From contig CP011213.1 of assembly GCA_001029735.1 (NCBI GenBank), forward strand, positions 524,613 through 588,612: 64,000 bases of DNA, read 5' to 3'. Under the pieces are notes generated by a model. That model was not told where the DNA came from. It made no database searches and saw only the letters and a list, made by a program, of their open reading frames with translations. Shown in pieces: positions 6,001 through 41,984 of the stretch (within the stretch, counting starts at the first letter, position 1; each line of letters starts with the position of its first letter). The position numbers were made by a program, and so were the translations under genes. This stretch comes from Berkelbacteria bacterium GW2011_GWE1_39_12. Lineage in GTDB: Bacteria > Patescibacteriota > UBA1384 > UBA12157.

Positions 6001-9000
6001 TAAGATTGTTTATGATACTGATCCGGTAGGACCCTTTGATTCTGTCTTAGAAGATTGGACAGCCCATAAGAACGGTGACACAATTACACATGCTTCAGAT
6101 CTGTTGTGTAATAGTACATATTATTACAAGGTCCAAGCCCAAAACAGCGACCATGACAATTCGAACTATAGCCCTGTAAGTTTTGACACAACTCCGCCTT
6201 GTGCTCCAATTGGTTTGCAGAATACAAACACAACTGCCACCTCAACTTTACTTGATTGGTCAGGGGAAACTGTATTGACAACGGTTTACGATGTTAGTTT
6301 TGGCACCGACACACAGGCGACCAATCTTGGAGAGACAGAAGGAACGGCAACATCGCAATTGGTTAAATCTGGTTTAAATTCTGAAACAACATACTATTTC
6401 AAAGTTAGGACGGTTAACACTAATGGCACTGGCGCCTGGAGCGGTATTGCTAACTTTACAACTCCGATCGCTGGCTCGTTATTGTTAATCGGTTTACCAG
6501 GGCAAAGCTATGTTGCTGGAACTGGTATAGTTGGCGATCCTAATCCACAAATAGCAGGTCAGTCATTTAACGGTACTGTTTACTCTGTTAACGATAATAA
6601 AATTCTTGCCTCCACAAGTGTTGAAATGGTTACTTTCTCGACTATAACGGACAGTTTAATTTCGAAATTCAATAATGGAAGTTCTGCACCGTCAGCTTCA
6701 CAAACTTTATCATCTGGACAAAAAACAGTCAGTTTTACTTTCTACCAAGCCGGCCAAAATATTATTAACATGACCGGTAGTACGGGTTCAAGTTCGCCTT
6801 TCCAAGTTAATCCGGCTGTTACTTCAACAACAGATTCTACTGTTTCCCCGTCATCGGCAAGCTTAAATGTCGGCCAGACAGCGGTCGAAACAATCACTTT
6901 GGTTGATATCTATGGAAACCTTATTTCTAATCGCGGTGTGACTGTTTCCACAAATCAAATCGGCGATATAATTTCTTTCTCTTCGACTAAGACAAACTCA
7001 AACGGACAGATCACAGCTTATATTGGATCAGGTTTTGCTCATACATCGACATTAACTATCATCGATGAAAATGGATTGACGTTGTCAACCCATCCGCAAA
7101 TTACTTTCAATAATGTAAAGCCAACATCCATCGAAAATCCAAGTAATTTTATCGGCACTGCTGGTAACTCAATCGCTTCTATAGGATGGACAAACCCAAC
7201 TTCAGTATACTTTGATCACACGGAAATATATCGTTCTCAATACGCTGGGCAATTAGGGTCAAAGATTGCTGACTCAACAGTGGACAATTCGGATAATTAC
7301 GTTGATTCTAGCTTAACTAATGGTACGACTTACTTTTACACTTTAAAATCAGTAGATGTCTACGGTAATATTTCCTCTGGGACCTATCAACTAGCGCTTA
7401 CACCAAATGCGGAAGTAGAGCCGAAATTACCAGCACCAACCAACTTACGCGCAACATTAATCAATGCAAACGAAGTAAATTTAGCTTGGGATGCCCCAGT
7501 TGGTAATTTAAGAGTCACAGGATATCATGTTTACAATGCGGATACCAATATTCAGATTGATTCGACAGTTGATGAAGCTTACCACGCAGATGGGCTGTCA
7601 CCAGAAACTACTTACCGGTTTTTCGTAATTGCTTACAACGACGCCGGTAATTCAGGCGCTTCAAATGCTGTTACCATTGTTACAAAAGCAATTACCGGTC
7701 CAACCCCTCCAGGTCCAATTTGCCACAATGGCGGTGGCAGAGTTAGCTATTTAGTCCTAGGCAACATGCCTTCCGAGGTCATTTCCGGTAATAGTTTGCC
7801 AGATAGTGTCAGTGTCAAGGTGATCGTAGCTGATGGCGGGGGACAGCTCTGCGATGGTTATCAGGGTACGATTTACTTTACTTCAACTGATGAAAAGGCT
7901 GATTTGAGATGGGATAAAACAAATAGTTACACCTTCACTAGCTTCGATGCCGGTTTACACGAGTTTGATGGCAAAGGTTTCACCTTAAGAACATTAGGCA
8001 ATCAAATAATTACAGTAACAGATGGTACTGTCTCTGGTAAGGCTGAAATCAAAGTCATTTCTAATAGATCATCTGATGTTGTTTTCTCTAAAGCTCAAGG
8101 TGTCGTTTCAGATTTTGTAAACAAAAATGCAACTAAAGTTAACACTGCCGTGGTTACTGCCACAACGGCATTATTAGTTACGCCGGCGGCAGTGAATGCG
8201 GCTATCGGTTTAGGCAACATTTTACCTCAGCTTATTTACTGGTTTACCCAATTATTGCAAATGATCGGTATTAGAAAGAAACGCAAGCCATGGGGTATAG
8301 TCTTCAACTCTCAAACCGGCCAGCCGGTCAGCCTTGCTACAGTCAAAATTTATGATAAAGAATATAATCGTTTATTAGAATCTTCTGTAACAGACAGAGA
8401 TGGTCGTTTTGGTTTCCTAGTCAGACCTGGCACTTTCTACTTAGTTTTGGCAAAAGGTGGCTTTATCTTCCCATCGCAATATAAAGTTTCCGGCTTCTTT
8501 GAAAACGTTTATACTGGTGGCAATATTAATATTGCCACCAAAGATGAGGGTGCTATCGATTTGAATATTCCATTAGATCCCCAGGCAAAAGCATCAGTCA
8601 TATTTACTTTATGGGCCAATCTAATCAAGATTAATAGATTCTTGCAAAAAATTCGCATCCCTTTAATGGCTATTGGTGTAATTTTTGCCGTAATCATGAT
8701 TATCACTAACTACAATATAATTTACGCCTTATCTTTGGCTCTTTACGGCATCCTATTCGTAATTGAATATCTACAGTCCAAGAGATCAAGACCGTATGGT
8801 GTGGTGAGCGATGTATTTGGTCATCCGTTAGCAATTTCAATCGTTAGAATTTATAGTAAGAAGACTGATCGCTTAATCGCAACAGATGTTACAGATAATC
8901 AGGGTCGTTTCAAATTTTTGGTTGTGCCTGGTATTTATTATATGACTGCAGCCAAGCCAGGCTACATCGACTTTAAGAGTCATATCATGTATCTAGAACG

Positions 9001-9055
9001 CGAACGAACGATGGTTACGACCAATATCAAACTTAAAAAGATGGATCGTCAGTAA
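8..9055 (+). CDS. Giant (>=3015 aa) cell-surface adhesin-like protein. Contains two N-terminal LamG/ConA-like jelly-roll modules, many FN3-like repeats with PTAPT linkers, beta-helix-like G/T/N-rich repeats, Big/Ig-like domains and a C-terminal membrane anchor. The ORF is open to the window's left edge with no signal peptide, so it is probably 5'-truncated.
   Basis: Single 9 kb ORF with recurrent FN3 signatures (e.g. 'PAPTNLRATLINANEVNLAWDAP...YRFFVIAYNDAGNS'). Internal long-range duplications: 'TEFAISCDSDE.FLNYTTNACE' occurs twice, and 'TGFKIYDG.N.L.ATCAT...LSPNTQYSGRY.VAYN' occurs twice. C-terminus has hydrophobic helices flanking two CarboxypepD_reg-like segments ('VKIYDKEYNRLLESSVTDRDGRFGF', 'VRIYSKKTDRLIATDVTDNQGRFKF'). 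No in-frame stop between nt 2 and the ATG at nt 8. Confidence 0.85.
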   Translation: MTQYDNFNDNSIDGAKWTGGGTSNGVTLAETGGEIKISGTNSSAGNIYPTLNSGYTPSVVTQVAQVKLKTPTAPASVGTFYEFGLAGDGGAFPIEIQYTTSGWRLAFYDPITQWAYTAYSVIGNESTEFKTLKIVYNINHPASQSPAPVNTGYAYGYVYDANGTEHYLGNFAIKGITLGDNIGVYLKGAVGPGVAVDGRFDDFMFYPVSSTVSDDFDTQSDGENPTGWVVAGEPTNGSIEVDSAQSFSTSNSLLLLRNVINNSNINANKNFTALDGIVYTSFNFRADGTTMTDKLFQLRNASGNEKVHMNFAPDGHIYAQSTDWAAVDLGTYSANTWYNVLIKTDCQREKYDVYINGVLKVSNLQVVNTTNQKTISRAQIHNTGNLTSGSRSIWFDSIQIYNEFKNISGLTAADATSASWDSTGWADGTNYLVRNRAYNTTDNLFGPYDHSDDVFGLVLAPAEDVPATPSVIAPANNGTGVITNPTGTSSDYSGNPSQLSASWEIYDDAGLAAENLVWSKYADTTNLTSIVVNSTNGTFSNSLAGQTTLASGTDYWIHVRHTNSIGDSEWSTANKFTTAIDAPTAPTNIGINSLTNAGFNATWTDNSTNESDFKVYISTVVANNDCQDAGTTWGTASLAGGADVATKAISGLTGNTQYCVKVTSTNVAGDSAPAYLAIPNYTLANVPTAPTIDATSSTSLTTIININSNPATTEFAISCDSDEMFLNYTTNACESIVDDSDHWRTFTNWGDASGFTQTGLNVNSSHVYKVMARNADKNNTNLSASTSKFTLSDTPASPDVTNTTLTTSLEIAIAADTNPASTEFAISCDSDEAFLNYTTNACETIADDSDHWRTAEGWGAFGKTDLLANTNHTYKVKSRNGDKVASVFSVGSSKYTLIEIPVISFGDIASASIALTGGTLSNINVGSSGVWFEETSGNTGGGNLVNPDGFGAWKTTNSIIDASLVSSTTYSYKAKAKNGDGTETVFSSPDASQITSAASSPPEAPTIGTPVVASATAIDWHFVDNSTDETGFKIYDGSNNLVATCATSNISVCTETGLSPNTQYSGRYVVAYNEAGNSSSSTNASAVYTLANTPLAPTVNTVDNHPGELIVVVNTNSNPVNTVFAIQETQVSGGKYVQADGSLNTSAVWQNVAQWGNITGVNITGLTVDTQYTFKVRVKNGDDVESPSPQFGPTAQQTTLTATTACNWTNDGTNNLWSNELNWSCAHVPTNADDAILDGAISNDNMTIDISATTGSLTIKGTNLPTGGDTAYTGTITESANLTTDNTNTKSGLFYFAGGTYNAGSHTITAMGNFTLAGGTFNKDTSTLVMKGTGSVTTGGQALNNLQISAIRSTSTSFRSEAHNAVALNTAGSIDLTVNKPSGVVSGDMMIAVFSSGSSNLSTISVASGWNLIRSLSDATNGNYAYAYSKQATGSEPSTYTFGFTGTGGYACDIYAYQGGTVSIDSYSSSFYSMTGSHDPITLTIPQITTVSTNTVLVSLFVSRMADSSTATLSTPVGGVSRANFTMSVPTPTRYFVNSLSDETLSVSGATGTRSSIANESSAFSAIGFMVAFENPPVNSSVIASDDLILSGALTTDANQTFGTGGNAVTIGGNIANSGILTANNSTIYIAGNYTNSGTFTYGTSTVNLNGTGAQTFTAGGTDSTKQLYNLVAANSSGNGIGVTFADSLTINGSFTNTTIDSKLTFNAGSTYTFPIIDLAGTDGHTILLRSSASSAWNLNVDADSVVHYIDAAYSNANHTINDTDGGVDSLNNTNWVFVNAPTAPTIGTPQVLSTTSIRWTFTDNASNETGFKIYDGTNTLKATCATANLTYCDEVALSPNTQYSGRYAVAYNDGGDSIHSADAVAKYTYIENPTGMTNSVNATTISTSATGALSNLGAGQTGFYFTSSQPGSNTCFNNWIQDNLCLNDNLTPNSPYTYTVKARNGDGYETAISDPVSVYTLSNTPTAPSVSANYDEANGYYETISINANSNPDNTLYKIVYDTDPVGPFDSVLEDWTAHKNGDTITHASDLLCNSTYYYKVQAQNSDHDNSNYSPVSFDTTPPCAPIGLQNTNTTATSTLLDWSGETVLTTVYDVSFGTDTQATNLGETEGTATSQLVKSGLNSETTYYFKVRTVNTNGTGAWSGIANFTTPIAGSLLLIGLPGQSYVAGTGIVGDPNPQIAGQSFNGTVYSVNDNKILASTSVEMVTFSTITDSLISKFNNGSSAPSASQTLSSGQKTVSFTFYQAGQNIINMTGSTGSSSPFQVNPAVTSTTDSTVSPSSASLNVGQTAVETITLVDIYGNLISNRGVTVSTNQIGDIISFSSTKTNSNGQITAYIGSGFAHTSTLTIIDENGLTLSTHPQITFNNVKPTSIENPSNFIGTAGNSIASIGWTNPTSVYFDHTEIYRSQYAGQLGSKIADSTVDNSDNYVDSSLTNGTTYFYTLKSVDVYGNISSGTYQLALTPNAEVEPKLPAPTNLRATLINANEVNLAWDAPVGNLRVTGYHVYNADTNIQIDSTVDEAYHADGLSPETTYRFFVIAYNDAGNSGASNAVTIVTKAITGPTPPGPICHNGGGRVSYLVLGNMPSEVISGNSLPDSVSVKVIVADGGGQLCDGYQGTIYFTSTDEKADLRWDKTNSYTFTSFDAGLHEFDGKGFTLRTLGNQIITVTDGTVSGKAEIKVISNRSSDVVFSKAQGVVSDFVNKNATKVNTAVVTATTALLVTPAAVNAAIGLGNILPQLIYWFTQLLQMIGIRKKRKPWGIVFNSQTGQPVSLATVKIYDKEYNRLLESSVTDRDGRFGFLVRPGTFYLVLAKGGFIFPSQYKVSGFFENVYTGGNINIATKDEGAIDLNIPLDPQAKASVIFTLWANLIKINRFLQKIRIPLMAIGVIFAVIMIITNYNIIYALSLALYGILFVIEYLQSKRSRPYGVVSDVFGHPLAISIVRIYSKKTDRLIATDVTDNQGRFKFLVVPGIYYMTAAKPGYIDFKSHIMYLERERTMVTTNIKLKKMDRQ

Positions 9056-9163: not shown

Positions 9164-10624
9164 TTACCAGTGGATGAATACAGGTGTACCGATTTCATCC
9201 CAGTTATATATCCATTCAGCATCACCATTGGAAGCATTGATACAACCATGGCTCATTGGATGACCAAAGTTATTGTGCCAATAAGTTCCATGAATTGAAT
9301 AGTCTCCGCTCCACCAGCTGATCCATTCGACATTTGGCACGCTATAACCAGGCCCATCCATAGTTTGGGAACGTGTCTTACCATAAACGGAGTAAGTACC
9401 CGTTGGGGTTGGACCAGTTTTTCCTGACGAAATTAAGAAATGGTTAACCATTGTATATCCGTCGAAAGCGTACAAGGTTTGCTCTGATAAATTAACGTCA
9501 ATATATCTACCGGCAAAACGTCCTGGCTGAGCATGAGGGTTTCTAATGATTTCAATTTTAGTAATTGGATACGTACCAATACTGATGGAATTATTATTAT
9601 TTGATTTAACTTGGTTTAACACATTATTAAGTAATTTTTCTGTATCGACACCAATACCGTCTTGTCCTTCAACCAATACTTCGCCAGTTCCTTCCATAAT
9701 TTCACGATCGATTTTTTTAACTTTAATTTTTGAAGCAACCTTATCGGTATAAGAGTTTACTTTTTGTTTTGAAAGATCGGCAACTAACTTATCGTTAACT
9801 TCCTTAAACTCAATCCAAGAGCCGATTTCACTTCTAGAAATAATATAATTATCATCTTGATAAATAAGATTGATTGGCGCTGTAGCCATTAAACTCTCGG
9901 CTTGTTTTTGTGCATCAAGAGTATCATCAGCAAATATTTTCGGTTGAAGAATAGAAGTTTTTAAAGTGATTTTCTCGTCAATTTTATTTTTAATTGCGTG
10001 TATTAAATCATTTTTAAGTACATCCTTATCAAAACCAAACCCTGGCTTTTCAGCAATTATTGAGATATTACCATTATCAATTGAAAGGCTGGCATTTTGA
10101 GCCGGTTTTTCGATTTCCTGATTGATTTTAGATAAAAAGTCATCTAATTTTGATTCGTCAACCTTCGGGCTTAAAGCGATATCGTGACCGGTAAAAATTA
10201 TTTGAGAGTTGGAGATTACTTTTTGCTTAAATGAGCCATCTCGTCCAAAATTATAAGCATCTGCTACAATCTTATCTGCATCAAAAGAAACTCCTAGTTC
10301 TGGCAGGGTAGAGTTTAGGGTTTGAGTTTCATGATTGATAGAAGGACCTTTTTTATTAATACTATCTATATAGGATAAAATAATTCTTTTAGCTTCGTCT
10401 GGAGTTTTACCCCCGATATTTATTCCGGCAACGGTTACCTTGGGTAAAATTTTTCCGTCGGTATCATTTTTAATCTTCCAGCCGGAAGCAAATAAGAGTG
10501 CCAAAATTAAAAGAACAGCTGATACTTTAGCCATCACTGCTTTGTAAGTAGAGTGTTTAATTTTTTCTGATTTATTAGTCTTGATTTTTGGTAACGCGAT
10601 TGATGGATGAATAAACTGTTGCAT
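9164..10624 (-). CDS. L,D-transpeptidase (YkuD-fold) family protein with an N-terminal membrane anchor
   Basis: C-terminal catalytic motif '...HGTYWHNNFGHPMSHGCINASNGDAEWIYNW' (conserved H/SHGC of L,D-transpeptidases). Hydrophobic anchor 'VSAVLLILALLFASGW'. Start moved to the ATG at 10624 (MQQFIHP...) because a GGAGGGG SD lies 5 nt upstream; the ORF-track start at 10696 has no RBS. Confidence 0.8.
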   Translation of the reverse strand: MQQFIHPSIALPKIKTNKSEKIKHSTYKAVMAKVSAVLLILALLFASGWKIKNDTDGKILPKVTVAGINIGGKTPDEAKRIILSYIDSINKKGPSINHETQTLNSTLPELGVSFDADKIVADAYNFGRDGSFKQKVISNSQIIFTGHDIALSPKVDESKLDDFLSKINQEIEKPAQNASLSIDNGNISIIAEKPGFGFDKDVLKNDLIHAIKNKIDEKITLKTSILQPKIFADDTLDAQKQAESLMATAPINLIYQDDNYIISRSEIGSWIEFKEVNDKLVADLSKQKVNSYTDKVASKIKVKKIDREIMEGTGEVLVEGQDGIGVDTEKLLNNVLNQVKSNNNNSISIGTYPITKIEIIRNPHAQPGRFAGRYIDVNLSEQTLYAFDGYTMVNHFLISSGKTGPTPTGTYSVYGKTRSQTMDGPGYSVPNVEWISWWSGDYSIHGTYWHNNFGHPMSHGCINASNGDAEWIYNWDEIGTPVFIHW

Positions 10625-29356: not shown

Positions 29357-29412
29357 ATAACCAATCTTTAGTTCTAATAAATAACAATATTTTTTCACCG
29401 AGTTGTTATAAG

Positions 29413-29449
29413 AAAAAACAATATTTTTGCAGAATATTGTTTTTTTAGA
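29413..29449 (+). terminator. AU-rich intrinsic terminator-like hairpin downstream of the carboxypeptidase gene
   Basis: Perfect 13-bp inverted repeat AAAAAACAATATT (29413-29425) / AATATTGTTTTTT (29433-29445) with a 7-nt loop, running into a T tract. Confidence 0.5.
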
Positions 29450-30348: not shown

Positions 30349-31275
30349 TCATGAAATTTTCTTCAAAACTTTTTTAAGATCAAATCCTGTTGAGTATAAA
30401 ATTGAAGAAAATAAATCTCCCTTCTTTTTAAGTCGAGCCGTTACTGTTTTCAAATTAAAATCTTCCGGGTTTAAGCCGCTTCTTATTTCCTCCCAATCAA
30501 GAGGGACTGATACAGTAGCTTTTATGGCTGGACGAACTGAATAAGGTGCAACGGTTGTTTTGTCTAATCCGTTTTGTAACCAATCTAAATATACCTTACC
30601 TTTTCTTTTTTTTGGGCTTCTTTCCAGACTAGTAAAATCTGCTGCCTTGCGATGTGCTAAGTTTGCAATAATCTCTGCCAATGTCTTTATTTGTGCGTAA
30701 TCGTATTTAGCGCCTGTAGGCAGATAGATATGTAGGCCTCTTTTTCCAGAAGTTTTTGGGTAACCCTCAATATTAAGATCGTCTAAAATCTCTTTAATTA
30801 TTAAAGCCGTCTTTATGACGTTATCAAAAGAGCTTTCAACAGGATCAAGATCAAGTATTAAATAGTCAGGTTTTTCGAAATCTGGGCCTTTTGAAGCCCA
30901 GGGATTTATTTCAATACAGCCCAGATTCACCACATAAATTAAAGAGGCAAGATCGTTAATGATTAAATACTTAGTTAAACTATTTTCCATCTTGCTGACT
31001 GTTTTAGTTTCAATCCAATCGGGTAGATTTAAATTGGAAGTGTCTTTTTGAAAAAAACCTAATCCTTTAATTCCATCTGGTGTTCGAAAAAGTGATTCAG
31101 GCCTTCCTTCTAAATACGGTAGAATAAACGGTGCGATTTCTGTATAAAAATTTATTAAATCTAATTTAGAGATTTTTTCTTCTGGCCAAAATATTTTCGA
31201 TGGATTCGAAATTTTAACTTTTTTGTTTTCAAGTGTTAATATCATTTCAGAATTTTGATTTATTAATTTCGGCAT
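30349..31275 (-). CDS. ligD: LigD polymerase (primase-like) domain protein
   Basis: 'KISNPSKIFWPEEKISKLDLINFYTEIAPFILPYLEGRP...FRTPDG' and 'YSVRPAIKATVSVPLDWEEI', characteristic of the LigD Pol domain. Overlaps the upstream gene by 29 nt; the alternative ATG at 31245 would abut its stop codon instead. Confidence 0.8.
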   Translation of the reverse strand: MPKLINQNSEMILTLENKKVKISNPSKIFWPEEKISKLDLINFYTEIAPFILPYLEGRPESLFRTPDGIKGLGFFQKDTSNLNLPDWIETKTVSKMENSLTKYLIINDLASLIYVVNLGCIEINPWASKGPDFEKPDYLILDLDPVESSFDNVIKTALIIKEILDDLNIEGYPKTSGKRGLHIYLPTGAKYDYAQIKTLAEIIANLAHRKAADFTSLERSPKKRKGKVYLDWLQNGLDKTTVAPYSVRPAIKATVSVPLDWEEIRSGLNPEDFNLKTVTARLKKKGDLFSSILYSTGFDLKKVLKKIS

Positions 31276-32749
31276 CTTCGAAAGTTACCTCATTAGGATT
31301 TTTGTCTTCTCTTAAACCTAAGAAGACGGCTTGTCTCAACATTTTATCTTTTGTCAGTTCTTGGTACCTAATCTCAATGACTATATCCGGAGCAACCCAT
31401 GTTGAATTCGGAAGCCGATTAAAATTTCCAAAAGGGGAATCCTTAATAATTTTTTGTCTTAGTTTTGAGTAGAACATTTCAAGATCTTTTTCTGTAAAAC
31501 CGGTCCCAACTCCACCGATAAACCTAAACTTATCTTTTTCAAAAATTCCTACTAATAATGATCCGAAGTATTTTCTGCCATTTTTGGGCTTTGTAAAGCC
31601 ACCAACCACAACTTCTTGCTGGGTTAAGGCTTTAATCTTTAGCCAATCTTTTGATCGAACTCCTTCGTGATATAAGCTATCCTTTTTCTTAGCGATAATT
31701 CCTTCGATGTTGTTTATTTTTGCTATTTCGAAAAATCTTTTTCCCTCTTTTTCGATAAATTCAGATTTCTTTAAATACGGAAGATCGGTAAGTATTTCGT
31801 CGAGGATTTGTTTCCTTTTAGTTAAGGGCAATACTTCGCAATTCTTCCCAGAAATATTCAAAACGTCAAAAACATAGTATATTAAATTACCCTCTTTAGT
31901 TTTTGAATAATCTTGAATTAAATGAAAATCTGGGTATCCCTTATCATTTAGAACCGTAATTTCTCCATCGAGTATACAATCAATGCTCAATTTTTTAAGC
32001 GATGAAACTAATTCGGGAAATCTTTTATTTAAAGATAATTGATTTCTTGAGATTAATTCAACTGAGCCATTTTTAATTAGCGCTAATGCTCGATAGCCGT
32101 CCCACTTAATTTCATAAAGCCAGTCTGGACTATCAAAAGGTTCGTGCACTAAAGTAGTCATCATTGGTTTGGCCATTTTAATATCTTTTGGTGGAAGTGA
32201 ACTTAGATCTAACTTTCCGCCTTTAAGCCAAAATACTTCTTTTTCGTTTTTAACTGGCTCTTCACTAAATTTTTTTTCCCTCGAAAATTCATCATTAGCT
32301 TTTATAAATAGCCAATAATTTTCCCCTTTAATTTTTTGTATTTTTACCAAAGCAAACTCGCCTTTAAGTTTTTTTCCTTTCAGCAAAAAAGTCAGGTGGC
32401 CGCTTTCTAAATTTTTATTATCTAAAAACTTATATTTACCTTTGTCCCAAATTTCTACCGTACCAGCGCCATAGTTACCCTCGGGAATCACTCCTTCGAA
32501 ATTTATATATTCTAAAGGATGGTCTTCGACTTGAACAGCCAATCTTTTTATTTTTGGATCTAATGTCGGTTTTTTTGGAATTGCCCAGCTTTTTAAAACG
32601 CCTTCCATTTGCAATCTAAAATCATAATGAAGATGCGATGCGTTGTGCTTTTGAATTACAAAATTTGAATCGGAACTACCCGTCAATTTTCCGAAGGGCT
32701 CCGGTGTTTTTTTGAATCGCCTTTTTGTTCGATATTTTCCTAAGGCCAC
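31247..32749 (-). CDS. ligD: LigD 3'-phosphoesterase (PE) + ATP-dependent DNA ligase domain protein
   Basis: PE domain 'FVIQKHNASHLHYDFRLQMEGVLKSWAIPKKP'. Ligase adenylation motif 'YEIKWDGYRALA' (KxDG). Confidence 0.85.
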   Translation of the reverse strand: MALGKYRTKRRFKKTPEPFGKLTGSSDSNFVIQKHNASHLHYDFRLQMEGVLKSWAIPKKPTLDPKIKRLAVQVEDHPLEYINFEGVIPEGNYGAGTVEIWDKGKYKFLDNKNLESGHLTFLLKGKKLKGEFALVKIQKIKGENYWLFIKANDEFSREKKFSEEPVKNEKEVFWLKGGKLDLSSLPPKDIKMAKPMMTTLVHEPFDSPDWLYEIKWDGYRALALIKNGSVELISRNQLSLNKRFPELVSSLKKLSIDCILDGEITVLNDKGYPDFHLIQDYSKTKEGNLIYYVFDVLNISGKNCEVLPLTKRKQILDEILTDLPYLKKSEFIEKEGKRFFEIAKINNIEGIIAKKKDSLYHEGVRSKDWLKIKALTQQEVVVGGFTKPKNGRKYFGSLLVGIFEKDKFRFIGGVGTGFTEKDLEMFYSKLRQKIIKDSPFGNFNRLPNSTWVAPDIVIEIRYQELTKDKMLRQAVFLGLREDKNPNEVTFEDAEINKSKF

Positions 32750-32751
32750 TT

Positions 32752-33531
32752 CTAAACCTTAGTTTTAGTTTTAGCTTTCTTTAAACTTTCTTGTAGCATT
32801 TTCATAAGGTCGGGGACAGGCGTAGGTTTTTTGACCGGAACAGCTTCCGGTTCCTTACCTGAAAGTTTTTGTTCGATAATTTTTTTCAAATTTTCGTTAA
32901 AATTATCTTTGTAGTTTTCAATCTCAATTGGCTTTTCTAAACTCGATATTAAATTAACCGCAAGTTTTAATTCGTCGTTTGTTACTTCTGAGGCTGCAGG
33001 ATTTTTTAATTCTTCTGGGCTTCTTATTTCATCTTGAAATCGAATTTGTTCCAAAATTAAATAACCATTTTCTACCTGCAAGGTCGCAAGATGCTCTCTG
33101 TTACGAATGGAAAATTTAGCTACTGCAATTCTTTTAGTTTGAATTAATGCTTCGCGAAGTAAGGCAAAAGATTTTTCAGCGCCTTCGTTTGGCTCTAGAT
33201 AATATGGTTTTTGATCTAGCATTCGATTAACTTTTTCTTTATCAGTGAAACCGACTATATTGATGCTTTTGTAGCTCGGTGAATTAACTTGTAGAAAGTC
33301 TTTTTCCGTTAAAACAACGTATTGATCCTTTTCATATTCATAGCCTTTGACGATTTCCGCATACGGAACCTCTTTTTCTTCTTCAACACAAACTCTGGCG
33401 AAACGAATCGGTGATAAATCCTTTTTATGAAGCATATCAAAATTATACACTCGATCATTCGATGCAGAATAAAGTTTAATTGGAATACTAATTAAGAAGA
33501 AATTTAAACTGCCCGACCAAATTGCTTTCAT
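32752..33531 (-). CDS. ku: Ku DNA-end-binding protein
   Basis: 'MKAIWSGSLNFFLISIPIKLYSAS...ARVC...YYLEP' matches the bacterial Ku core. Abuts the ligD genes. Confidence 0.85.
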   Translation of the reverse strand: MKAIWSGSLNFFLISIPIKLYSASNDRVYNFDMLHKKDLSPIRFARVCVEEEKEVPYAEIVKGYEYEKDQYVVLTEKDFLQVNSPSYKSINIVGFTDKEKVNRMLDQKPYYLEPNEGAEKSFALLREALIQTKRIAVAKFSIRNREHLATLQVENGYLILEQIRFQDEIRSPEELKNPAASEVTNDELKLAVNLISSLEKPIEIENYKDNFNENLKKIIEQKLSGKEPEAVPVKKPTPVPDLMKMLQESLKKAKTKTKV

Positions 33532-35636: not shown

Positions 35637-38360
35637 TTATCGGATGAATTTAGAAGAGAGCTTAGAAATGTTTGGAATGTCATCGCTTTTGGTAGCTTTT
35701 TGGCCTAAACGATAAAAATATTTTCGGATTTCTTCCACTACGATTATTGATAAACTAATAGTAATGATTGTTACCCAGTCAATAAAATTTAATGGAGTTG
35801 TGTGCAAAATCCTCTGCATAATTGGATTATAGACTGCTAACATCTGTAGCAGAATAACTATGATAGTCGCTCCGACTAAAAATTTATTGGAAAAAAATCT
35901 CATCTGAAAGATCGATTTTTCTTCTGAACGACAGTTCCAAGCGTTGAACCATTGAAAAACCGCTAATGTTGTCAAAGATATCGTCCAGGCTTTAGTAATA
36001 TCGACTTGATAGAACCTGCTAAAAAGATAAAGCGTACCAACCATCATTGGTAGAGCCATTAAAATAATTCTCTTTGTCATTAAGGAATCAATCAGATATT
36101 TAGAAGGTTTTTCAGGTTTTTCCTTGAGCAAACCGTCTTCTTTCGGTTCCATCGCCAATGACATGTCTAAAAAACCATCAGTAACTAAATTGAGCCAAAT
36201 AATCTGTGCCGGTAATATGGGTAGTGCCCATCCTAAAACAAGTGCTCCCGATATAGTTAAAACTTCGCCTATGCTGGTGGAGAAAAGATACAGAATCACC
36301 TTTTTAATGGTTTTATAGATCGATCGACCTTCTTCGACCGCTGAGACAATGCTGCCGAAATTATCGTCCAAAAGAACAATGTCAGCGGCTTCTTTAGTTA
36401 CCTCAGTACCGATTTTCCCCATCGCCACTCCTAAATCGGCAGCAACAAGGGAAGGCGCGTCATTAACGCCGTCGCCAGTCATCGCAATAATTTCCCCTCT
36501 TGTCCTAAAAGCTTTGATTATCATCAGTTTGTGTTCGGGAGTTACTCTGGCGAAAACCGAGGTATAATCAAGTTTTTCTGAAAGTTCAGTTTCGGAAAGT
36601 TTTTCAAGTTCTTCACCTGTTAAAATCATATCTCCTTGCGAGAAGATCCCCGCCTCTTGGGCAACTGCCTTGGCCGTAATCGGATGGTCGCCGGTAATCA
36701 TTACAATTCTAATACCGGCAGAATGTGCTTTTTGAACTGCATTATGGACTTCTGGGCGAAGAGCATCTTTCATGCCCAAAAAGCCCAAGAAGGTTAGTGA
36801 ATTAACCTCGTCTAGCTTAAGACTTGTAGAGATTTTATCCGAAGTTGCGATAGCGACCACTCTTAAACCTTCTTTAGACATTTCTTGAAAAGTTGACTCA
36901 AGTTTTTTAACCTCTACCAAAGATAATTCTTCAACTTTCCCATCCCGCCAGATTTTCTGGGAAAGTTTTAAAATCGTCTCGGGTGCTCCAGAAACTGTCA
37001 TTATTTTGTTTAATCCTTCTTGATTTACAACTGTGCGAAGTTTATGTCTGTAATCAAAGGGAGTCTCGGCAATCTTTGGCAAATCTTTTTCCGTCTTGTC
37101 TCTGTCAATCCCTAGTTTATTGGCAAATACCAACATAGCCGCCTCTGTTGGATCGCCTGAAACTTGATGGTTACCTTTCTCAAAAGTTACATTTGCCCCT
37201 GAGGACAACAATGTATGCAAAGATAAGGTTTCTAACTCAGGAAAATCACTAAGATTGATCGTTTTCCCATCAATTTTTACTTCTCCTTTTGGTTCGTAAC
37301 CTTCACCGGTAATTTGAAAGCATTTTCCATTAATAAATACTTTTTGGACCATCATTTCATTCTTTGTGATCGTGCCCGTTTTATCAACTGCAATAATTTT
37401 AGTTTGCCCTAGCGCTTCAACAGCATAAAGTTTTTTGATCAAAGCATTGCGCTTACTCATCCTCCAGACCCCGGTGGTCAGAATCAGAGTCATCACAATT
37501 GGCAAACCCTCTGGAATTATCGAAACAGCCAAAGAAACCACCGTTCTAAACATTTCAGAAAGGGGATTTCCATGAGCAATTCCAAGGAATATAAGAAGAG
37601 TACCAATTATTATGACAGCATAAACAATTAGTCGTGAAAGATAGCGGATGTTGGTTTTAAGAGGTATTTCCGTATCGATGGTAGCGATTTCTTTAGAGAT
37701 TTTCCCAATATAAGTATCTAACCCTGTGGCGACAACAATTGCTTTTCCATTTCCGGCAACAATGTGAGTTCCTTTGAAAACCATGTTTTTTTGATCGGAG
37801 ATCGGCAAATGAGTTGTTTCCAAAATCTCGGATATTTTACTTACAGGCTCTGACTCGCCAGTTAAGGTTGATTCATCGAGGCGCAACTGATTAGAAACTA
37901 ACAGACGAGCATCGGTAGGGATTTTCTCGCCTTCTTGCAAGACAATAATGTCACCAGGAACGAGTTCGCTATCTGAAATAATCGATTCTTTACCGTCCCT
38001 TAAAACAGTTGCCTTAGTGGCGACATAGTTTTTAAGTGCTAAGAGTGTATTTTGGGCTTTCCCTTCTTGAATGGTGCCGACAATCGCATTAAAGAAAAGA
38101 ACAAACAGGATCAATCCTCCATCGGTATACTCCTTTAGAAAGAGGGTAATGACGGCGGCGGCAAAAAGGATATAGATTAGAGGACTTTGAAATTGACGAA
38201 AAAATATTACCAGCAAACTATCTGATTTCGCTTCAGGAAGTTTGTTCTGTCCGTACTTTAGTAAGCGGTTTTTGCTTTCTGGATTCGTTAAACCTTCTAT
38301 ATTGGAACCAAAATCAGCCAAGATTGTCTCAGTTGATTTATTAAACCATAAATTGTTCAC
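35637..38360 (-). CDS. P2-type cation-transporting ATPase (Ca2+-ATPase-like)
   Basis: 'DKTGTITKN' phosphorylation motif, 'IPEGLP' TM4 motif, 'TGDGVNDAPSL' hinge, and the N-terminal cation-ATPase domain. Confidence 0.9.
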   Translation of the reverse strand: MNNLWFNKSTETILADFGSNIEGLTNPESKNRLLKYGQNKLPEAKSDSLLVIFFRQFQSPLIYILFAAAVITLFLKEYTDGGLILFVLFFNAIVGTIQEGKAQNTLLALKNYVATKATVLRDGKESIISDSELVPGDIIVLQEGEKIPTDARLLVSNQLRLDESTLTGESEPVSKISEILETTHLPISDQKNMVFKGTHIVAGNGKAIVVATGLDTYIGKISKEIATIDTEIPLKTNIRYLSRLIVYAVIIIGTLLIFLGIAHGNPLSEMFRTVVSLAVSIIPEGLPIVMTLILTTGVWRMSKRNALIKKLYAVEALGQTKIIAVDKTGTITKNEMMVQKVFINGKCFQITGEGYEPKGEVKIDGKTINLSDFPELETLSLHTLLSSGANVTFEKGNHQVSGDPTEAAMLVFANKLGIDRDKTEKDLPKIAETPFDYRHKLRTVVNQEGLNKIMTVSGAPETILKLSQKIWRDGKVEELSLVEVKKLESTFQEMSKEGLRVVAIATSDKISTSLKLDEVNSLTFLGFLGMKDALRPEVHNAVQKAHSAGIRIVMITGDHPITAKAVAQEAGIFSQGDMILTGEELEKLSETELSEKLDYTSVFARVTPEHKLMIIKAFRTRGEIIAMTGDGVNDAPSLVAADLGVAMGKIGTEVTKEAADIVLLDDNFGSIVSAVEEGRSIYKTIKKVILYLFSTSIGEVLTISGALVLGWALPILPAQIIWLNLVTDGFLDMSLAMEPKEDGLLKEKPEKPSKYLIDSLMTKRIILMALPMMVGTLYLFSRFYQVDITKAWTISLTTLAVFQWFNAWNCRSEEKSIFQMRFFSNKFLVGATIIVILLQMLAVYNPIMQRILHTTPLNFIDWVTIITISLSIIVVEEIRKYFYRLGQKATKSDDIPNISKLSSKFIR

Positions 38361-38364
38361 GGAG

Positions 38365-38565
38365 CTACTCCTTGATTTGCTTTAAGCCAATAATGGCAAG
38401 ATAAATGATGGGGACAACAAAAATAATCCAAAGCAAAATAACGGCCATATCGGTCAAAAACCAACCTGGAAAATAAACGGTGATTAGAACACCGGCGGCG
38501 ATCATGGAAAACTTAAGTAGCCCCAATTGCCACCAAGAAAACGAATAATCTTTAAATGGATGCAT
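38365..38565 (-). CDS. Small two-TM membrane protein, apparently co-transcribed with the P-type ATPase gene
   Basis: AAGGAG SD precedes an ATG at 38565 (MHPFKDYSFSWWQLGLLKFSMIAAGVLITVYF...). The ORF-track start at 38652 lies inside the promoter/-35 region. Confidence 0.5.
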   Translation of the reverse strand: MHPFKDYSFSWWQLGLLKFSMIAAGVLITVYFPGWFLTDMAVILLWIIFVVPIIYLAIIGLKQIKE

Positions 38566-38645
38566 TTTGCTCCTTTGTTTAATTTTACCACAGAAAGATG
38601 ATAAGTAATTGTACTGCAAATAAACGGATGAAAAACGTAAAAAAC

Positions 38646-38674
38646 TTGACAAATATGAACATATGTTCTAAAAT
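38646..38674 (+). promoter_or_regulatory. Sigma70-like promoter (TTGACA-17-TAAAAT) with a perfect 12-bp palindrome GAACATATGTTC in the spacer
   Basis: TTGACA at 38646-38651, 17-nt spacer 'aatatgaacatatgttc', TAAAAT at 38669-38674. Confidence 0.5.
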
Positions 38675-38680
38675 AAAATT

Positions 38681-38761
38681 AATCAATTTGATTTCAAACT
38701 TGTTTATAATCAATTTGATTTCAAACTTGTTTATAATCAATTTGATTTCAAACTTGTTTAT
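38681..38761 (+). repeat. Three perfect tandem copies of a 27-bp unit (AATCAATTTGATTTCAAACTTGTTTAT), each containing a TTTGA-N2-TCAAA palindrome. Probable operator/iteron array in the 5' leader.
   Basis: Direct reading: the unit repeats at 38681, 38708 and 38735. The array ends 20 nt before the ATG of the DUF134 gene. Confidence 0.9.
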
Positions 38762-38781
38762 TTTTACTAGAAAAGGAAAAT

Positions 38782-39297
38782 ATGCGTAATGGAAAACGGG
38801 GAAGAAAAAAACTTTTAAGAACAATTCATTTTTGTCCAGAAATAACCTACTTTAAACCGGTGGGGGTTCCTTTGAGAAACTTACAAGAGGAGGTTTTGAC
38901 TTTGGATGAAGTCGAAGCAATACGCTCGACAGATCTAGACGATCTAAATCAAGAAGAAGCGGCTATAAAAATGGGAATTTCCAGGATTACATATTTAAGA
39001 ATTTTACATAGTGCGCACAAAAAAATAGCCAGAAGTTTAATTTATGGTAAAGCAATTCAAATGAGAGGAGGTGATGTAATTATGCCAAACTTAGACGGGA
39101 CCGGCCCCCAGGGCCATGGTTCGCAAACTGGACAAGGACAGGGTTGGGGTAAAAAACAAGGACAAGGATTAGGCGGCACTGAAGAGTGTGTCTGCCCAAA
39201 ATGTGGCGAAAAAGTATCGCATCGCAGAGGAGTTCCCTGTAGCCAAATGATTTGCCCGAAATGTAACGCGCCTTTAACAGGAAAATTTTGTGAGTAA
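38782..39297 (+). CDS. DUF134 (UPF0251) HTH DNA-binding domain fused to a DUF5320 Gly-rich segment and a C-terminal CxxC...CxxC zinc ribbon
   Basis: 'CPEITYFKPVGVPLRNLQEEVLTLDEVEAIRSTDLDDLNQEEAAIKMGISRITYLRILHSAHKKIARSLIYGKAI' (DUF134). 'MPNLDGTGPQGHGSQTGQGQG' (DUF5320-like). 'CVCPKCGEKVSHRRGVPCSQMICPKCNAPL'. AAAGGAAAA SD. Confidence 0.75.
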   Translation: MRNGKRGRKKLLRTIHFCPEITYFKPVGVPLRNLQEEVLTLDEVEAIRSTDLDDLNQEEAAIKMGISRITYLRILHSAHKKIARSLIYGKAIQMRGGDVIMPNLDGTGPQGHGSQTGQGQGWGKKQGQGLGGTEECVCPKCGEKVSHRRGVPCSQMICPKCNAPLTGKFCE

Positions 39298-39327
39298 GAA
39301 ATTTTTTATAGAAGGGAGGTGACTAAT

Positions 39328-39570
39328 ATGCCAAGATTAAATGGAACAGGTCCGCAAGGAATGGGACCAATGACAGGAAGAGGTTTGGGTTCTTGCGGAG
39401 GTGGTAGAGGATATGGACGGGGAATGGGTTGTGGCTATGGTTGTGGAATGCCCTGGTCATATCGACAGCCGAATATTGACGAAGAAAAAGAAATGATTAA
39501 AGATGACATTGCCGTTTTAAAAGAAGAATTAAAAGCCGCCGAAGAGCGTCTTTCAGAGTTGAATAAGTAG
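39328..39570 (+). CDS. DUF5320 family protein (Gly/Cys-rich N-terminus and coiled-coil C-terminus)
   Basis: 'MPRLNGTGPQGMGPMTGRGLGSCGGGRGYGRGMGCGYGCGMPW' followed by a coiled coil. GAAGGGAGG SD before the ATG at 39328. Confidence 0.75.
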   Translation: MPRLNGTGPQGMGPMTGRGLGSCGGGRGYGRGMGCGYGCGMPWSYRQPNIDEEKEMIKDDIAVLKEELKAAEERLSELNK

Positions 39571-39635
39571 AATAAAAATGAAGAGGGAATTAACGGAAAC
39601 CCACTTCCCTCTTCACTTGTATTGTAAGGAGATTT

Positions 39636-40031
39636 ATGGACTCATACAATGTGTGCGGGCAGATCCCCGTTATTAAAGAAATATCGTGGGTTGTAATCAC
39701 TAGTGCCGCGCTAGTCGATTCAATTAATCCTTGCGCAATCGCGGTATTGTTAATTTTATTAGGATCGCTTCTTACCTTAAAAACTAAAAGGCAAGCAGTT
39801 TTAACTGGGCTATCTTTTGTTGTCGGCTTGTTTGTTGCTTATTTTTTAGCAGGCTTCGGACTTTTTCATGCCTTAACTTTGGTTGGAATCGCCAAGTGGT
39901 TCCATCTGGTAGTGGGGATATTGGCAATAATTATTGGACTTTCCAATGTCAAAGACTATTTTTGGTATGGGGCGGGTGGATTTGTTACTGAAATCCCAAA
40001 TCGCTGGCGGCCAAAAATGAAAAATATTTGA
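39636..40031 (+). CDS. ccdA: CcdA/DsbD-family thiol-disulfide transporter, N-terminal half. The gene is split or frameshifted.
   Basis: 'DSINPCAIAVLLILLGSLL' first conserved Cys-containing TM. The ORF ends in an A-rich tract, and the continuation lies in another frame. Confidence 0.6.
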   Translation: MDSYNVCGQIPVIKEISWVVITSAALVDSINPCAIAVLLILLGSLLTLKTKRQAVLTGLSFVVGLFVAYFLAGFGLFHALTLVGIAKWFHLVVGILAIIIGLSNVKDYFWYGAGGFVTEIPNRWRPKMKNI

Positions 40032-40342
40032 CAAAAATTGTAAAACCGTTGCCAGCTTTTTTGATTGGTTTTGTGATTATTTTCTTCGAGCTGCCGTGTA
40101 CTGGCGGACCGTATCTATTTACTCTGGGCTATCTCGCTAGTCTGCCCAAATTTTCTTTAGTGCCAATACTTATCTATTATAACTTGATCTTTATTTTGCC
40201 GCTTTTGCTTATTATCGGTCTGGTGTATTTTGGATATTCTAGTATTGAAAAAACAACTCAATGGAAAGATAAAAACATTAGGATTTTACACCTTATTTCT
40301 GGTATAATAATGTTGGGTCTAGGTCTTTGGATAATTAATTAG
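40028..40342 (+). CDS. ccdA: CcdA/DsbD-family thiol-disulfide transporter, C-terminal half (TTG start overlapping the upstream stop)
   Basis: 'FFELPCTGGPYLFTLGYLAS' second conserved Cys motif. The two halves together come to ~235 aa. Confidence 0.6.
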   Translation: MTKIVKPLPAFLIGFVIIFFELPCTGGPYLFTLGYLASLPKFSLVPILIYYNLIFILPLLLIIGLVYFGYSSIEKTTQWKDKNIRILHLISGIIMLGLGLWIIN

Positions 40343-40351
40343 AATGGGATA

Positions 40352-41089
40352 ATGACTTTACTATTTATTCTTTTGGCTACTTTTATTAATGGATTAGTCG
40401 CTTTTACAGGTGCTACTTTTTTATTTTTTGGCCCTAAGAAGTATGGAAAAATCCTTTTTTTACTCGTTGCTTTTTCGACTGGCGCATTGCTCGGCGGTGC
40501 ATTTTTTCATCTTATTCCTGAATCTTTAGAAGCCATTGATTCAAATTTGACTTTTATATTGGTCTTGATTGGTTTCTCTGCTTTTTTTCTGATGGAAAAA
40601 TACTTTCATTGGCGTCATTGTCATGACGATGAATGCAATATCCATCCTGCCAGTTACCTGCTATTGTTTGGCGATGGAATCCATAATTTTATTGACGGCT
40701 TAGTTATAGCTGCTTCTTTTATGGTTGATTTTCGATTTGGTGTCATTACGACAATCCTTATTATCGCCCATGAATTGCCTCAAGAACTGGGAGATTTCGG
40801 TGTTTTAGTCCATTTGGGTATGAAAGTTAAAAAAGCCCTAATTTATAATTTTCTCTCACAATTAACAGCGGTTGCTGGGGGGATTGTCGGATATATTTTA
40901 TCGGGTAACACTGAATTTAGCACTGCAATGCTACCGATAGCTGCCGGCGGATTTATCTATATTGCGGCCTCTGATCTAATTCCTGAATTACATAAAGAGC
41001 GACAGCTTAAACGCTCAATTGCTAATTACTCAATCTTTTTAGTGGGTATTTGTTTTATTGTTATTCTAAAAATTTTATTGGGTGAATAG
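40352..41089 (+). CDS. zupT: ZIP-family metal (Zn/Fe) transporter ZupT
   Basis: 'HNFIDGLVIAASF' and 'HELPQELGDFGVLV' ZIP signatures. Confidence 0.85.
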   Translation: MTLLFILLATFINGLVAFTGATFLFFGPKKYGKILFLLVAFSTGALLGGAFFHLIPESLEAIDSNLTFILVLIGFSAFFLMEKYFHWRHCHDDECNIHPASYLLLFGDGIHNFIDGLVIAASFMVDFRFGVITTILIIAHELPQELGDFGVLVHLGMKVKKALIYNFLSQLTAVAGGIVGYILSGNTEFSTAMLPIAAGGFIYIAASDLIPELHKERQLKRSIANYSIFLVGICFIVILKILLGE

Positions 41090-41223
41090 CTCTCGATCAA
41101 TTTTCTGATTTACTCAATTTGCTCCACTTAAAAAGTTTCATATATTAAGCGGAGAGATTTGGGTTACCCATCTTCACGATCTAAACTGCAATATCAGCTG
41201 ATTCAAGCCAAATATTACAAAAA

Positions 41224-41252
41224 ACACCTCTACCATTTGAAGAGGTGTTTTT
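41224..41252. terminator. Bidirectional intrinsic terminator
   Basis: AAAAAACACCTCT-accatttga-AGAGGTGTTTTT. 8-bp GC-containing stem flanked by an A-run and a T-run between convergent genes. Confidence 0.8.
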
Positions 41253-41276
41253 GCTCAATAATTTCTCTAAATGTAT

Positions 41277-41984
41277 CTAAAAATTATTTTTCCAGCGATT
41301 CATCCAACCGAATAAGCTAAACCCACTCTGTAAACTAGTTAACTGATCTTTCAACTCTAATTGGGTTTGCTGTAAAACAATGATCTGATTGGCAACTGTA
41401 ATCTTGTCGGTGTTACTAGTTAATTGTGTTAGTATTTGCTCAAGTGACTTTATCTGTTTTTGGTTCTCGGATAGGGTATCTTTGGCTATTTTTAATTCTT
41501 TGTAGTTTGCTCCAATAAAGAACTTGGCAAATCCGCTTCTTGTTTCAGCTTTATCAATAGATTGTCCTATCTTGTCTTGATTTTTGGTCTGCGTTTGAGC
41601 AATCGTTCGAATTTGATCTCCGATTCCCTCATTTTTGACTTGAGCGGCGGTGCGAATCAACTGCTGTGCCGCGCTGGCGACCGCACTTCTTTGCTCAACA
41701 CCTTTGGAATTTTTCGGTGTGTATTGGGATGTGGCTTGACTAATATCTTCCTGGATCTGTGTCTCGGTTCTAGTTTGTGTCATCGTTCCCGCACTGGGAT
41801 TATTTGTTTGTGTTTGGCTTTGAGTCGCATCCGTTGTGTTGCTCGAAGCCGCAGACGAATCAACTGATGTACTAGACGTACCGGTATTTCCACTTGTTGA
41901 ACCTTGTCCATTTTCCGAGGCTGCAAAGGCCAATCCAGGAACCAGCATAATGAGTCCAAGCATAATTGTAAAAGCTTTTTTCAT
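41277..41984 (-). CDS. Secreted protein with an S/T/Q-rich low-complexity region and a C-terminal coiled coil; hypothetical
   Basis: Signal peptide 'MKKAFTIMLGLIMLVPGLAFAAS'. Long S/T/Q-rich tract followed by heptad-like repeats. Confidence 0.6.
   Translation of the reverse strand: MKKAFTIMLGLIMLVPGLAFAASENGQGSTSGNTGTSSTSVDSSAASSNTTDATQSQTQTNNPSAGTMTQTRTETQIQEDISQATSQYTPKNSKGVEQRSAVASAAQQLIRTAAQVKNEGIGDQIRTIAQTQTKNQDKIGQSIDKAETRSGFAKFFIGANYKELKIAKDTLSENQKQIKSLEQILTQLTSNTDKITVANQIIVLQQTQLELKDQLTSLQSGFSLFGWMNRWKNNF

Follow-up and report, generated by a model that had tools for sequence, protein, structure and literature searches.

What is the purpose of a near-consensus promoter that harbours a palindrome in its spacer and is immediately followed by three identical copies of a 27-bp sequence? 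The question is raised by a stretch of 64 kb (the window) from a 915-kb genome of Candidatus Berkelbacteria, a member of the candidate phyla radiation (CPR; Patescibacteria) from Rifle groundwater. The promoter precedes a gene of the family DUF134 (UPF0251), which is followed by genes for a DUF5320 protein, a CcdA-like membrane protein and a metal transporter of the ZIP family. A preliminary description of this DNA had merged palindrome and repeats into one elaborate operator, to be occupied cooperatively in front of a metal-responsive locus. We here separate the two. We consider it likely that the palindrome is a predicted operator at which the DUF134 protein represses its own synthesis, and that the 27-bp array is an unrelated, recent triplication.

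The promoter was detected on the + strand by a consensus scan. Its -35 hexamer TTGACA (38646-38651) and its -10 hexamer TAAAAT (38669-38674) are separated by 17 bp, score 11 out of 12 against the consensus and make up the top promoter-like site between 37800 and 41600. In the orthologues of the CPR, TTGACA is kept in all promoters, and TAnAnT is found at the position equivalent to the -10 hexamer. The spacer contains the perfect 12-bp palindrome GAACATATGTTC (38657-38668); on promoter and palindrome, coordinates and scan agree with the preliminary description. A Shine-Dalgarno-like AAAGGA, as read from the sequence (38772-38777, + strand), ends 4 nt before the ATG at 38782, and a GAAAGGA-type motif is seen at the equivalent position in orthologues. 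Within the window, GAACATATGTTC is found once as an exact copy; near-copies with up to two mismatches are at chance level (4 versus 3.3 expected). In relatives, the search for the palindrome was more rewarding: there it is kept upstream of DUF134 genes.

Promoter and palindrome are conserved base for base before DUF134 orthologues of 40-82% identity, and these reside in unrelated neighbourhoods. At L014 (L numbers denote the fetched loci) the neighbours are cobalamin genes and a class II ribonucleotide reductase, at L020 TMEM175 and heliorhodopsin genes, at L024 a GalT-type gene; L023 belongs to a plasmid-like region. These four orthologues, which are 69-82% identical to the regulator, all display TTGACA-AWWA-TGAACATATGTTC-TAnAAT, 17-21 nt 5' of the ATG. 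A scan of metagenome contigs with the pattern TTGACA-N4-TGAACATATGTTCTA returned 42 loci. A DUF134 open reading frame (ORF) lies directly downstream in 32 of the 41 that were assessable, and the CPR-type matches are all DUF134 genes.

The palindrome is not confined to the CPR. Across phyla, DUF134 genes were collected by protein similarity alone, and the upstream DNA was inspected thereafter. In front of these genes, palindromes with a CATATG core were encountered in Deltaproteobacteria, Bacteroidales and Clostridia, on enterobacterial plasmids and in DPANN archaea. Smithella has GAGCATATGCTT, in the promoter context TTGACA..TGAGCATATGCTTATAAT; Melioribacteraceae have GGGCATATGCTC, the bacterium BMS3Abin03 ATGAGCATATGCTCAT, a member of the Bacteroidales (L009) ATAAACATTTGTTCAT, Acetoanaerobium TAGCAAATGCCA and Subdoligranulum TGACATATGCCA. 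In Clostridium butyricum, TTGACATATGTCAA is embedded in a 34-bp palindrome that overlaps the -35 hexamer. Plasmids of Klebsiella, Citrobacter and Aeromonas have two T[GTA]GCATATGCCA sites at a distance of 29-30 bp. As to archaea, the DPANN-like L006 has ATGAATATATATTCAT, and in Woesearchaeota (L001) two sites are located downstream of a TATA box TTTAAATA and upstream of DUF5320-DUF134. Under the definition used for the enrichment, a 12-bp palindrome may have a single bad pair and its CATATG core a single mismatch at the most, and it was sought within 150 nt upstream. Such a palindrome is found at 13 of 20 independent loci, 0.028 being expected per locus; the binomial estimate, about 3e-16, is optimistic, since the definition was picked after the first examples. 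In a prospective set, fetched after the definition had been fixed, all six of six loci had the palindrome. Sites of this type also occur at a distance from the DUF134 gene. In L004, another locus of the Bacteroidales, they are found at 7139-7154 and 9458-9473, one between a CoA-disulfide-reductase-like gene and the divergently oriented pair of a DUF89 damage-control phosphatase and a radical SAM protein, the other upstream of a NifX-like-DUF5320 operon, which hints at a small regulon.

The half-site of the palindrome changes with the recognition helix of the protein. The helix SR[IVT]T[FY].R is associated with GAACATATGTTC at every locus where this helix is present, i.e., at about 45 loci with at least 25 different proteins. 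In a subclade of the CPR the helix reads AR[IV]TYL[KN] and the site TGACATATGTTA, in 4 of 4 proteins; here the outer bases have changed (TGAC...GTTA), and it is on these that LexA depends most. SR[QA]T goes along with xxGCATATGCxx, and SQPT, the helix of DPANN archaea, with GAATATATATTC. This is the pattern to be expected if the DUF134 protein reads the half-site itself.

The protein would be suited to such a task. The regulator encoded at 38782-39297 (+ strand) comprises 171 residues and combines the DUF134 helix-turn-helix (HTH) domain with a motif that resembles the N-terminal part of DUF5320 and with a Cys7-His domain. With 81.2 bits over residues 5-100, against a cut-off of 27, it is a family match to DUF134/UPF0251 (PF02001; Pfam E-value 8.7e-23); the match to NCBIfam PRK04217 (6.3e-20) is below the equivalog cut-off. 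Residues 101-129 are rich in glycine and resemble the first 29 positions of DUF5320, with a score (21.6 bits) below the cut-off of 27. Residues 136-170 (window 39187-39294) constitute the Cys7-His module, C-x-C-x2-C-x5-H-x5-C-x4-C-x2-C-x8-C, of which C136, C138, C141, H147, C153, C158, C161 and C170 are invariant among 33 CPR relatives. A simple 4-Cys zinc ribbon would require fewer ligands, so the module may hold two metal sites or an Fe-S cluster. In the AlphaFold2 model the core, residues 36-95, is confident (predicted local distance difference test 74-94) and displays strand, helix, helix, long helix and strand. With this model, Foldseek retrieved ECF sigma-70 region 4 and the DNA-binding domain of Bacillus subtilis DeoR (TMt 0.6-0.72, E >= 0.05), which superpose with root mean square deviations of 0.6-1.1 A over 40-50 residues. 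The family profile, run against the PDB, found the DeoR DNA-binding domain 7bhy only (E = 0.0023), with ISRxT in the recognition helix. A solved structure within the DUF134 family was not found, and a PDB sequence search with the full protein yielded a weak zinc-ribbon similarity to ClpX only. The model contains a three-helix HTH core of the sigma-70 region 4 type and would fit a dimeric HTH protein that binds a palindrome. The family (UPF0251, COG1342) is large, about 4000 clusters at 50% identity. In the searchable literature no papers on the DNA target or the role of DUF134 were found, nor were there DUF134 relatives in viral contigs or phage records.

How might the circuit operate? The promoter is of the sigma-70 type, and the operator of the protein encoded just downstream would reside in its 17-bp spacer. 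A dimer of the sigma-4-like HTH protein would bind GAACATATGTTC between -35 and -10. As the site is placed in a spacer of optimal length in a near-consensus promoter, binding should exclude RNA polymerase and thus result in negative autoregulation. The repressed operon would consist of DUF134, DUF5320 and, probably, the CcdA-like and ZIP genes. Repression may be released when the Cys7-His domain, the DUF5320 partner or both sense a metal, an Fe-S or a thiol-redox signal. Throughout the family, operators would share the CATATG core, and their palindromic half-sites would differ in accord with the recognition helix. Most likely, then, the palindrome is the DUF134 protein's own operator, the site of an autorepressor. 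Autoregulation by the DUF134 fusion protein had been voiced as a possibility in the preliminary description; for the palindrome it is the best-supported reading, in view of the conservation across relatives, the enrichment and the covariation with the helix.

The nature of the signal is suggested by the company that DUF134 keeps. A DUF5320 gene follows DUF134 at nine other loci (L028, L041, L044, L046, L066, L067, L075, L077 and L078). ZIP transporters are encoded in or near DUF134 operons at L045, L066 and L077, and ZIP and CDF transporters at L045, L066, L077 and L078. Outside the CPR the partners are NifB/NifX-like proteins and Fe-S proteins of the Mrp/ORP type. From the Cys7-His module and these recurrent partners (DUF5320, DsbD_2-like, ZIP, CDF and NifX/Mrp-type proteins) we infer sensing of a metal, an Fe-S cluster or the thiol-redox state. 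A metal or redox role is plausible. The metal-responsive locus of the preliminary description has thus survived as an association of genes (DUF5320, DsbD_2/SfLAP-like, ZIP and CDF), which recurs in relatives; the response to metal itself is plausible only.

The array is a different matter. It extends from 38680 to 38761, within the predicted 5' leader, and consists of 3.0 perfect copies of the 27-bp unit TAATCAATTTGATTTCAAACTTGTTTA; a gap of 20 nt is left between its end at 38761 and the ATG of the DUF134 gene at 38782. A repeat search and Tandem Repeats Finder detected it, the latter with 100% matches and a score of 164, the maximum of the window (runner-up 79). Each unit holds TTTGA-N2-TCAAA, as had been described before, and also a small dyad, AATCAA-T-TTGATT. 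By itself the dyad is unremarkable: the unit is 78% A+T, and chance alone would give 0.59 TTTGA-N2-TCAAA sites in the window. The period corresponds to about 2.6 helical turns, which places neighbouring units on different faces of the helix. The unit is unique to its locus. No further copy with up to three mismatches is present in the window (0 expected), viral contigs gave 0 matches, and blastn-short against the fetched loci gave chance matches of 10-18 nt only. A CATATG-core motif is not contained in the unit, and Rfam has no match across 38000-41500. No promoter is predicted inside the array on the + strand; on the - strand there is one weak 9/12 site, which is at chance level. A coding role was considered and rejected. 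The ORFs concerned, 38598-38789 (+) and 38585-38824 (-), start upstream of the promoter or are antisense and have no ribosome-binding site.

The array is real. Exactly three copies are found in L011 and L013, which are k127 MEGAHIT contigs from different samples, and in the JGI contig L038; the array is therefore no assembly artefact. In the scaffold L012, which comes from the same population, the array is interrupted by 100 N (about 2504-2603), with two units either side, which tells us that short-read assemblers struggle at this place. The carriers are restricted to the population of the window (the window itself, L011-L013 and L038). In all 49 relatives' loci examined, the closest syntenic ones included, the array is absent; L075, L044 and L076, which are 81% identical and share the order DUF134-DUF5320-CcdA-like, have none either. 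The comparison of copy numbers among genomes thus amounts to three in each resolved assembly of this population and no array in relatives. In consequence, -10 hexamer and ATG are 107 nt apart here, whereas the 49 relatives' loci have a median distance of 18 nt (range 6-52). The array looks like a recent tandem triplication, achieved by slippage or unequal exchange, which would have pushed promoter and operator 81 bp further away from the start codon in one Berkelbacteria population. On this simplest reading, the perfect identity of the units reflects their youth. Between selection and recent expansion, the alternatives offered by the preliminary description, we prefer the latter; perfect identity by itself suits a recent duplication as well as selection. 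The array has no place in any conserved control region and is a minor curiosity at the strain level.

The genes behind the regulator are all on the + strand. An 80-residue DUF5320 protein is encoded at 39328-39570; it is a family match (PF17253, 59.4 bits against a cut-off of 27; 8.4e-16). Between this gene and the next one, at 39580-39614, a GC-rich hairpin GAAGAGGGAA...TTCCCTCTTC is predicted (-19.2 kcal/mol, z = -2.1). Its stem is also present in L075 (about 4785-4820), and no T-run follows. Perhaps it divides the operon, as a partial terminator or as an element that affects the stability of the mRNA. The next gene (39636-40342), for a CcdA-like membrane protein of the SfLAP/DsbD_2 type with NPC and PCxxGP motifs, is split into two ORFs, 39636-40031 and 40028-40342. 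The frameshift is due to the deletion of one nucleotide in a short T-run near 40026-40029 and is identical in three assemblies; the gene is either a real pseudogene or one that requires frameshifting. Intact orthologues of 236 residues exist in L046, L075 and L077. The fragments of the window reach 27.6 bits with SfLAP for the N-terminal piece (cut-off 35) or have no match; the intact orthologue of L077 exceeds the cut-offs for SfLAP (42.7, above 35) and for DsbD_2 (PF13386; 26.6, above 24.9). The last gene (40352-41089) encodes a metal transporter of 245 residues, a member of the ZIP family (PF02535, 153 bits against a cut-off of 35.1; 1.5e-44). With ZupT (equivalog NF003243) it scores 48 bits, below the cut-off of 252, so the label ZupT does not hold at the equivalog level. 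Of the names given to these genes in the preliminary description, DUF134, DUF5320 and ZIP are retained; for the supposed ZupT, membership in the ZIP family is as much as can be stated, and the supposed CcdA is a frameshifted SfLAP/DsbD_2-like gene.

Is the palindrome really owned by DUF134? GAACATATGTTC fits GAAC-N4-GTTC, the LexA motif of Firmicutes and Actinobacteria, variants of which are found in other phyla (PMC4951493). The DUF134 operon of Berkelbacteria and relatives might hence be part of the DNA-damage (SOS) regulon, with LexA instead of its own product as the repressor. Several points indeed weigh against autorepression by DUF134. The identity with the core of the Gram-positive LexA box is the main caveat in CPR genomes, and the metagenome scan found the promoter-embedded 12-mer in front of other genes, too, among them those for a LexA-type HTH protein (LexA_DNA_bind; L040), a Y-family polymerase (L059/L065), DUF3224 (L049/L060) and a glyoxalase/bleomycin-resistance protein (L052). 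Together with L027, L057 and L062, these six loci with an identified gene make up the nine non-DUF134 loci of the scan, mostly on contigs of higher G+C. Further, the covariation of helix and half-site in the CPR may stem from a single evolutionary event, and the motif definition behind the enrichment was chosen post hoc; the DUF134 genes of DHVE2/Thermoplasmata (L007, L008, L010) have no such palindrome close upstream; and the hairpin at 39580-39614, together with a weak promoter-like site at 39622, may split the operon into two transcription units. LexA, however, hardly accounts for the distribution of the site, which follows the DUF134 gene, not LexA. In archaea, Bacteroidales and Deltaproteobacteria and on enterobacterial plasmids, DUF134 has CATATG-core palindromes in front of it, although LexA is missing there or recognizes other motifs. 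To our knowledge, archaea do not have LexA at all. The gammaproteobacterial LexA motif is CTGT-N8-ACAG (PMC4951493), and LexA of Bacteroidetes uses still other motifs (PMC8565304); the archaeal, enterobacterial and Bacteroidales sites are therefore not explained by LexA. Within the CPR, the scan matches of CPR type are without exception DUF134 genes, and the subclade mentioned above alters precisely the LexA-critical outer bases together with the DUF134 helix. No other intergenic GAAC-N4-GTTC is present in the window, nor is there one upstream of the class II ribonucleotide reductase beside the L014 orthologue. A tblastn search for lexA in the window and the fetched loci found the LexA-like HTH protein of L040 only, and Pfam annotation of 40 window ORFs revealed neither lexA nor recA, the window being 64 kb of a 915-kb genome. 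Taken together, ownership by LexA appears rather improbable. A dyad centred in a promoter spacer is also the hallmark of MerR, and the metal-related downstream genes would suit an activator that distorts the DNA upon a signal. Promoters of this kind, however, need a spacer of 19-20 bp; here it has the optimal 17 bp, the hexamers are near consensus, and the regulator belongs to DUF134, not to the MerR family. Moreover, in other lineages the sites overlap the -35 hexamer or adjoin the ribosome-binding site. An activator of the MerR type is scarcely credible.

With the palindrome ascribed to DUF134 as an autorepressor, the array still has to be judged. Three perfect, dyad-bearing copies between promoter and ribosome-binding site, invariably three in every resolved assembly, may remind one of protein-binding sites, i.e., of an array of operators or roadblocks at which DUF134 or a second regulator would exert cooperative control. 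The constant copy number could mean fixation by selection, and absence in relatives implies that the array is not ancestral, yet it is no proof of a lack of function; both points count against our view of the array. The units, however, are missing from all relatives, syntenic ones included, and with them any conserved dyad; they are unique to the locus and have no CATATG core; their period of about 2.6 turns, not an integral number, puts the sites out of phase; the dyad is no more than A+T-rich DNA would give; and perfect identity suits a recent duplication equally well. We regard binding sites as very unlikely, and with them go the multi-site cooperative binding and the array's share in the elaborate operator of the preliminary description. 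An effect of the array, if there is any, is most likely exerted at the level of the mRNA, through a long, A/U-rich and structured leader; otherwise the array is without effect. The predicted transcription start is upstream of the array, the leaders of relatives are very short, and for the leader of the window a long hairpin with imperfect pairing is predicted (-23.4 kcal/mol, z = -3.4), with a second, weak helix between the U-rich end of the last unit and the Shine-Dalgarno region. The insertion of 81 nt might in this way alter stability or translation of the message and retune the autoregulatory loop in this strain. Of course, the repetition of a dyad-containing unit yields such a hairpin automatically. 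The transcription start, too, is a predicted one, Rfam has no match, and there is no conservation on which covariation could be judged. That the array acts as RNA is unlikely, in our opinion. Our preference remains with a triplication that is unrelated to the operator.

Other features of the window may be mentioned for completeness. Divergent from the DUF134 promoter, an ORF of 67 residues (38365-38568, - strand) looks like a two-helix membrane protein; it is situated directly upstream of, and on the same strand as, a P2-type cation ATPase (35637-38360) and is called as a gene in the independent assembly L013. A complete set for non-homologous end joining (30349-33531, - strand) comprises Ku, a LigD ligase with a phosphoesterase domain and a LigD primase-polymerase, in a small CPR genome; neither a palindrome nor an SOS-like box is found nearby. 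An ORF of 3015 residues occupies 8-9055. Finally, a weak imperfect repeat of 34 bp x 2.1 with 75% matches (29371-29441) is intergenic and follows a D-Ala-D-Ala carboxypeptidase gene.

The DUF134 genes of databases and plasmids deserve a separate remark. CPR proteins of the family often start with 'MNICS...' or a similar extension in the databases (P0095, P0097-P0099, P0112, P0017, P0062; L023, L071, L079). ATG AAC ATA TGT TCT, the operator sequence, has been translated here: gene callers put the start codon inside the palindrome. On conjugative enterobacterial plasmids, a module DUF134-NifB/NifX(-PaaI thioesterase-Dps) is widespread (183-198 plasmid records). In its representatives from Klebsiella, Citrobacter and Aeromonas (L068, L070, L082), the two palindromes, 29-30 bp apart and TGGCATATGCCA-like, lie just upstream of the DUF134 gene.

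What is gained? An old and widespread family would acquire a concrete candidate operator, namely a CATATG-core palindrome whose half-site follows a code linked to the recognition helix. Its likely mode of action would be the repression of its own promoter, and DUF5320, NifX-like, DsbD_2-like, ZIP and CDF proteins are its recurrent partners. The GAAC-N4-GTTC boxes that emerge from scans for SOS regulons in the CPR may belong to DUF134, not to LexA, and many start codons of DUF134 genes in databases are misplaced inside the operator. The enterobacterial plasmid version offers a tractable experimental system for the family. One may go further and consider DUF134/UPF0251 as universal, autoregulated sensors of bacteria and archaea that act on CATATG-core palindromes, base 3 of the half-site being read by residue x of S-R-x-T. 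In the CPR, the fusion to the DUF5320-type motif and the Cys7-His domain would govern Zn/Fe transporter and thiol-redox genes, elsewhere the family would govern genes for Fe-S carriers of the NifX/Mrp type, including those on about 190 clinical enterobacterial plasmids, and the array of Berkelbacteria would rewire the loop post-transcriptionally. Such a comprehensive picture is possible, if less likely than not, and we offer it tentatively.

How does the locus compare with known systems? Bacterial intergenic minisatellites (variable numbers of tandem repeats), e.g., the mycobacterial interspersed repetitive units, consist of perfect head-to-tail units of tens of bp, are strain-specific and arise from slippage or unequal recombination. 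The array resembles them in its perfect head-to-tail units, its position in an intergenic region or leader and its strain specificity; it differs in being a single locus with no related units elsewhere and with a copy number that is constant in the assemblies so far. With plasmid iterons and tandem operator arrays it shares three identical direct repeats near the gene of a DNA-binding protein, but neither a rep gene nor the context of an origin is present here, the regulator's motif is missing from the unit, the array is not conserved, and the period is 27 bp, or about 2.6 turns. The 'Cheo box' of LexA (GAAC-N4-GTTC) comes close to the palindrome: the 12 bp are identical, the position coincides in part with that of a sigma-70 promoter, and in both cases a dimeric HTH protein is predicted to repress by steric hindrance. 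Here, however, the site tracks DUF134 genes across phyla and domains as well as the DUF134 helix, and no DNA-repair gene is involved. Regulators of the DeoR/SorC type (PDB 7bhy/8r7y) and sigma-70 region 4 are the closest solved folds to the DUF134 HTH, and the DeoR complex contains its DNA operator. Unlike DeoR/SorC, DUF134 has an N-terminal FKP motif and flanking strands of its own and lacks the sugar-binding effector domain; in the CPR it is fused instead to the Gly-rich DUF5320-type motif and the Cys7-His domain. The operons of Zur/Fur and ArsR/SmtB offer the parallel of a small repressor gene next to genes for metal importers or exporters, a palindrome over the promoter and a Cys-rich putative sensor. 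DUF134, in contrast, is another family, and many of its orthologues stand alone or next to unrelated genes. As judged from sequence comparison, the locus would thus be of a familiar type, an HTH repressor that controls its own gene through a palindromic operator within the promoter; the new part would be an operator common to the DUF134 family.

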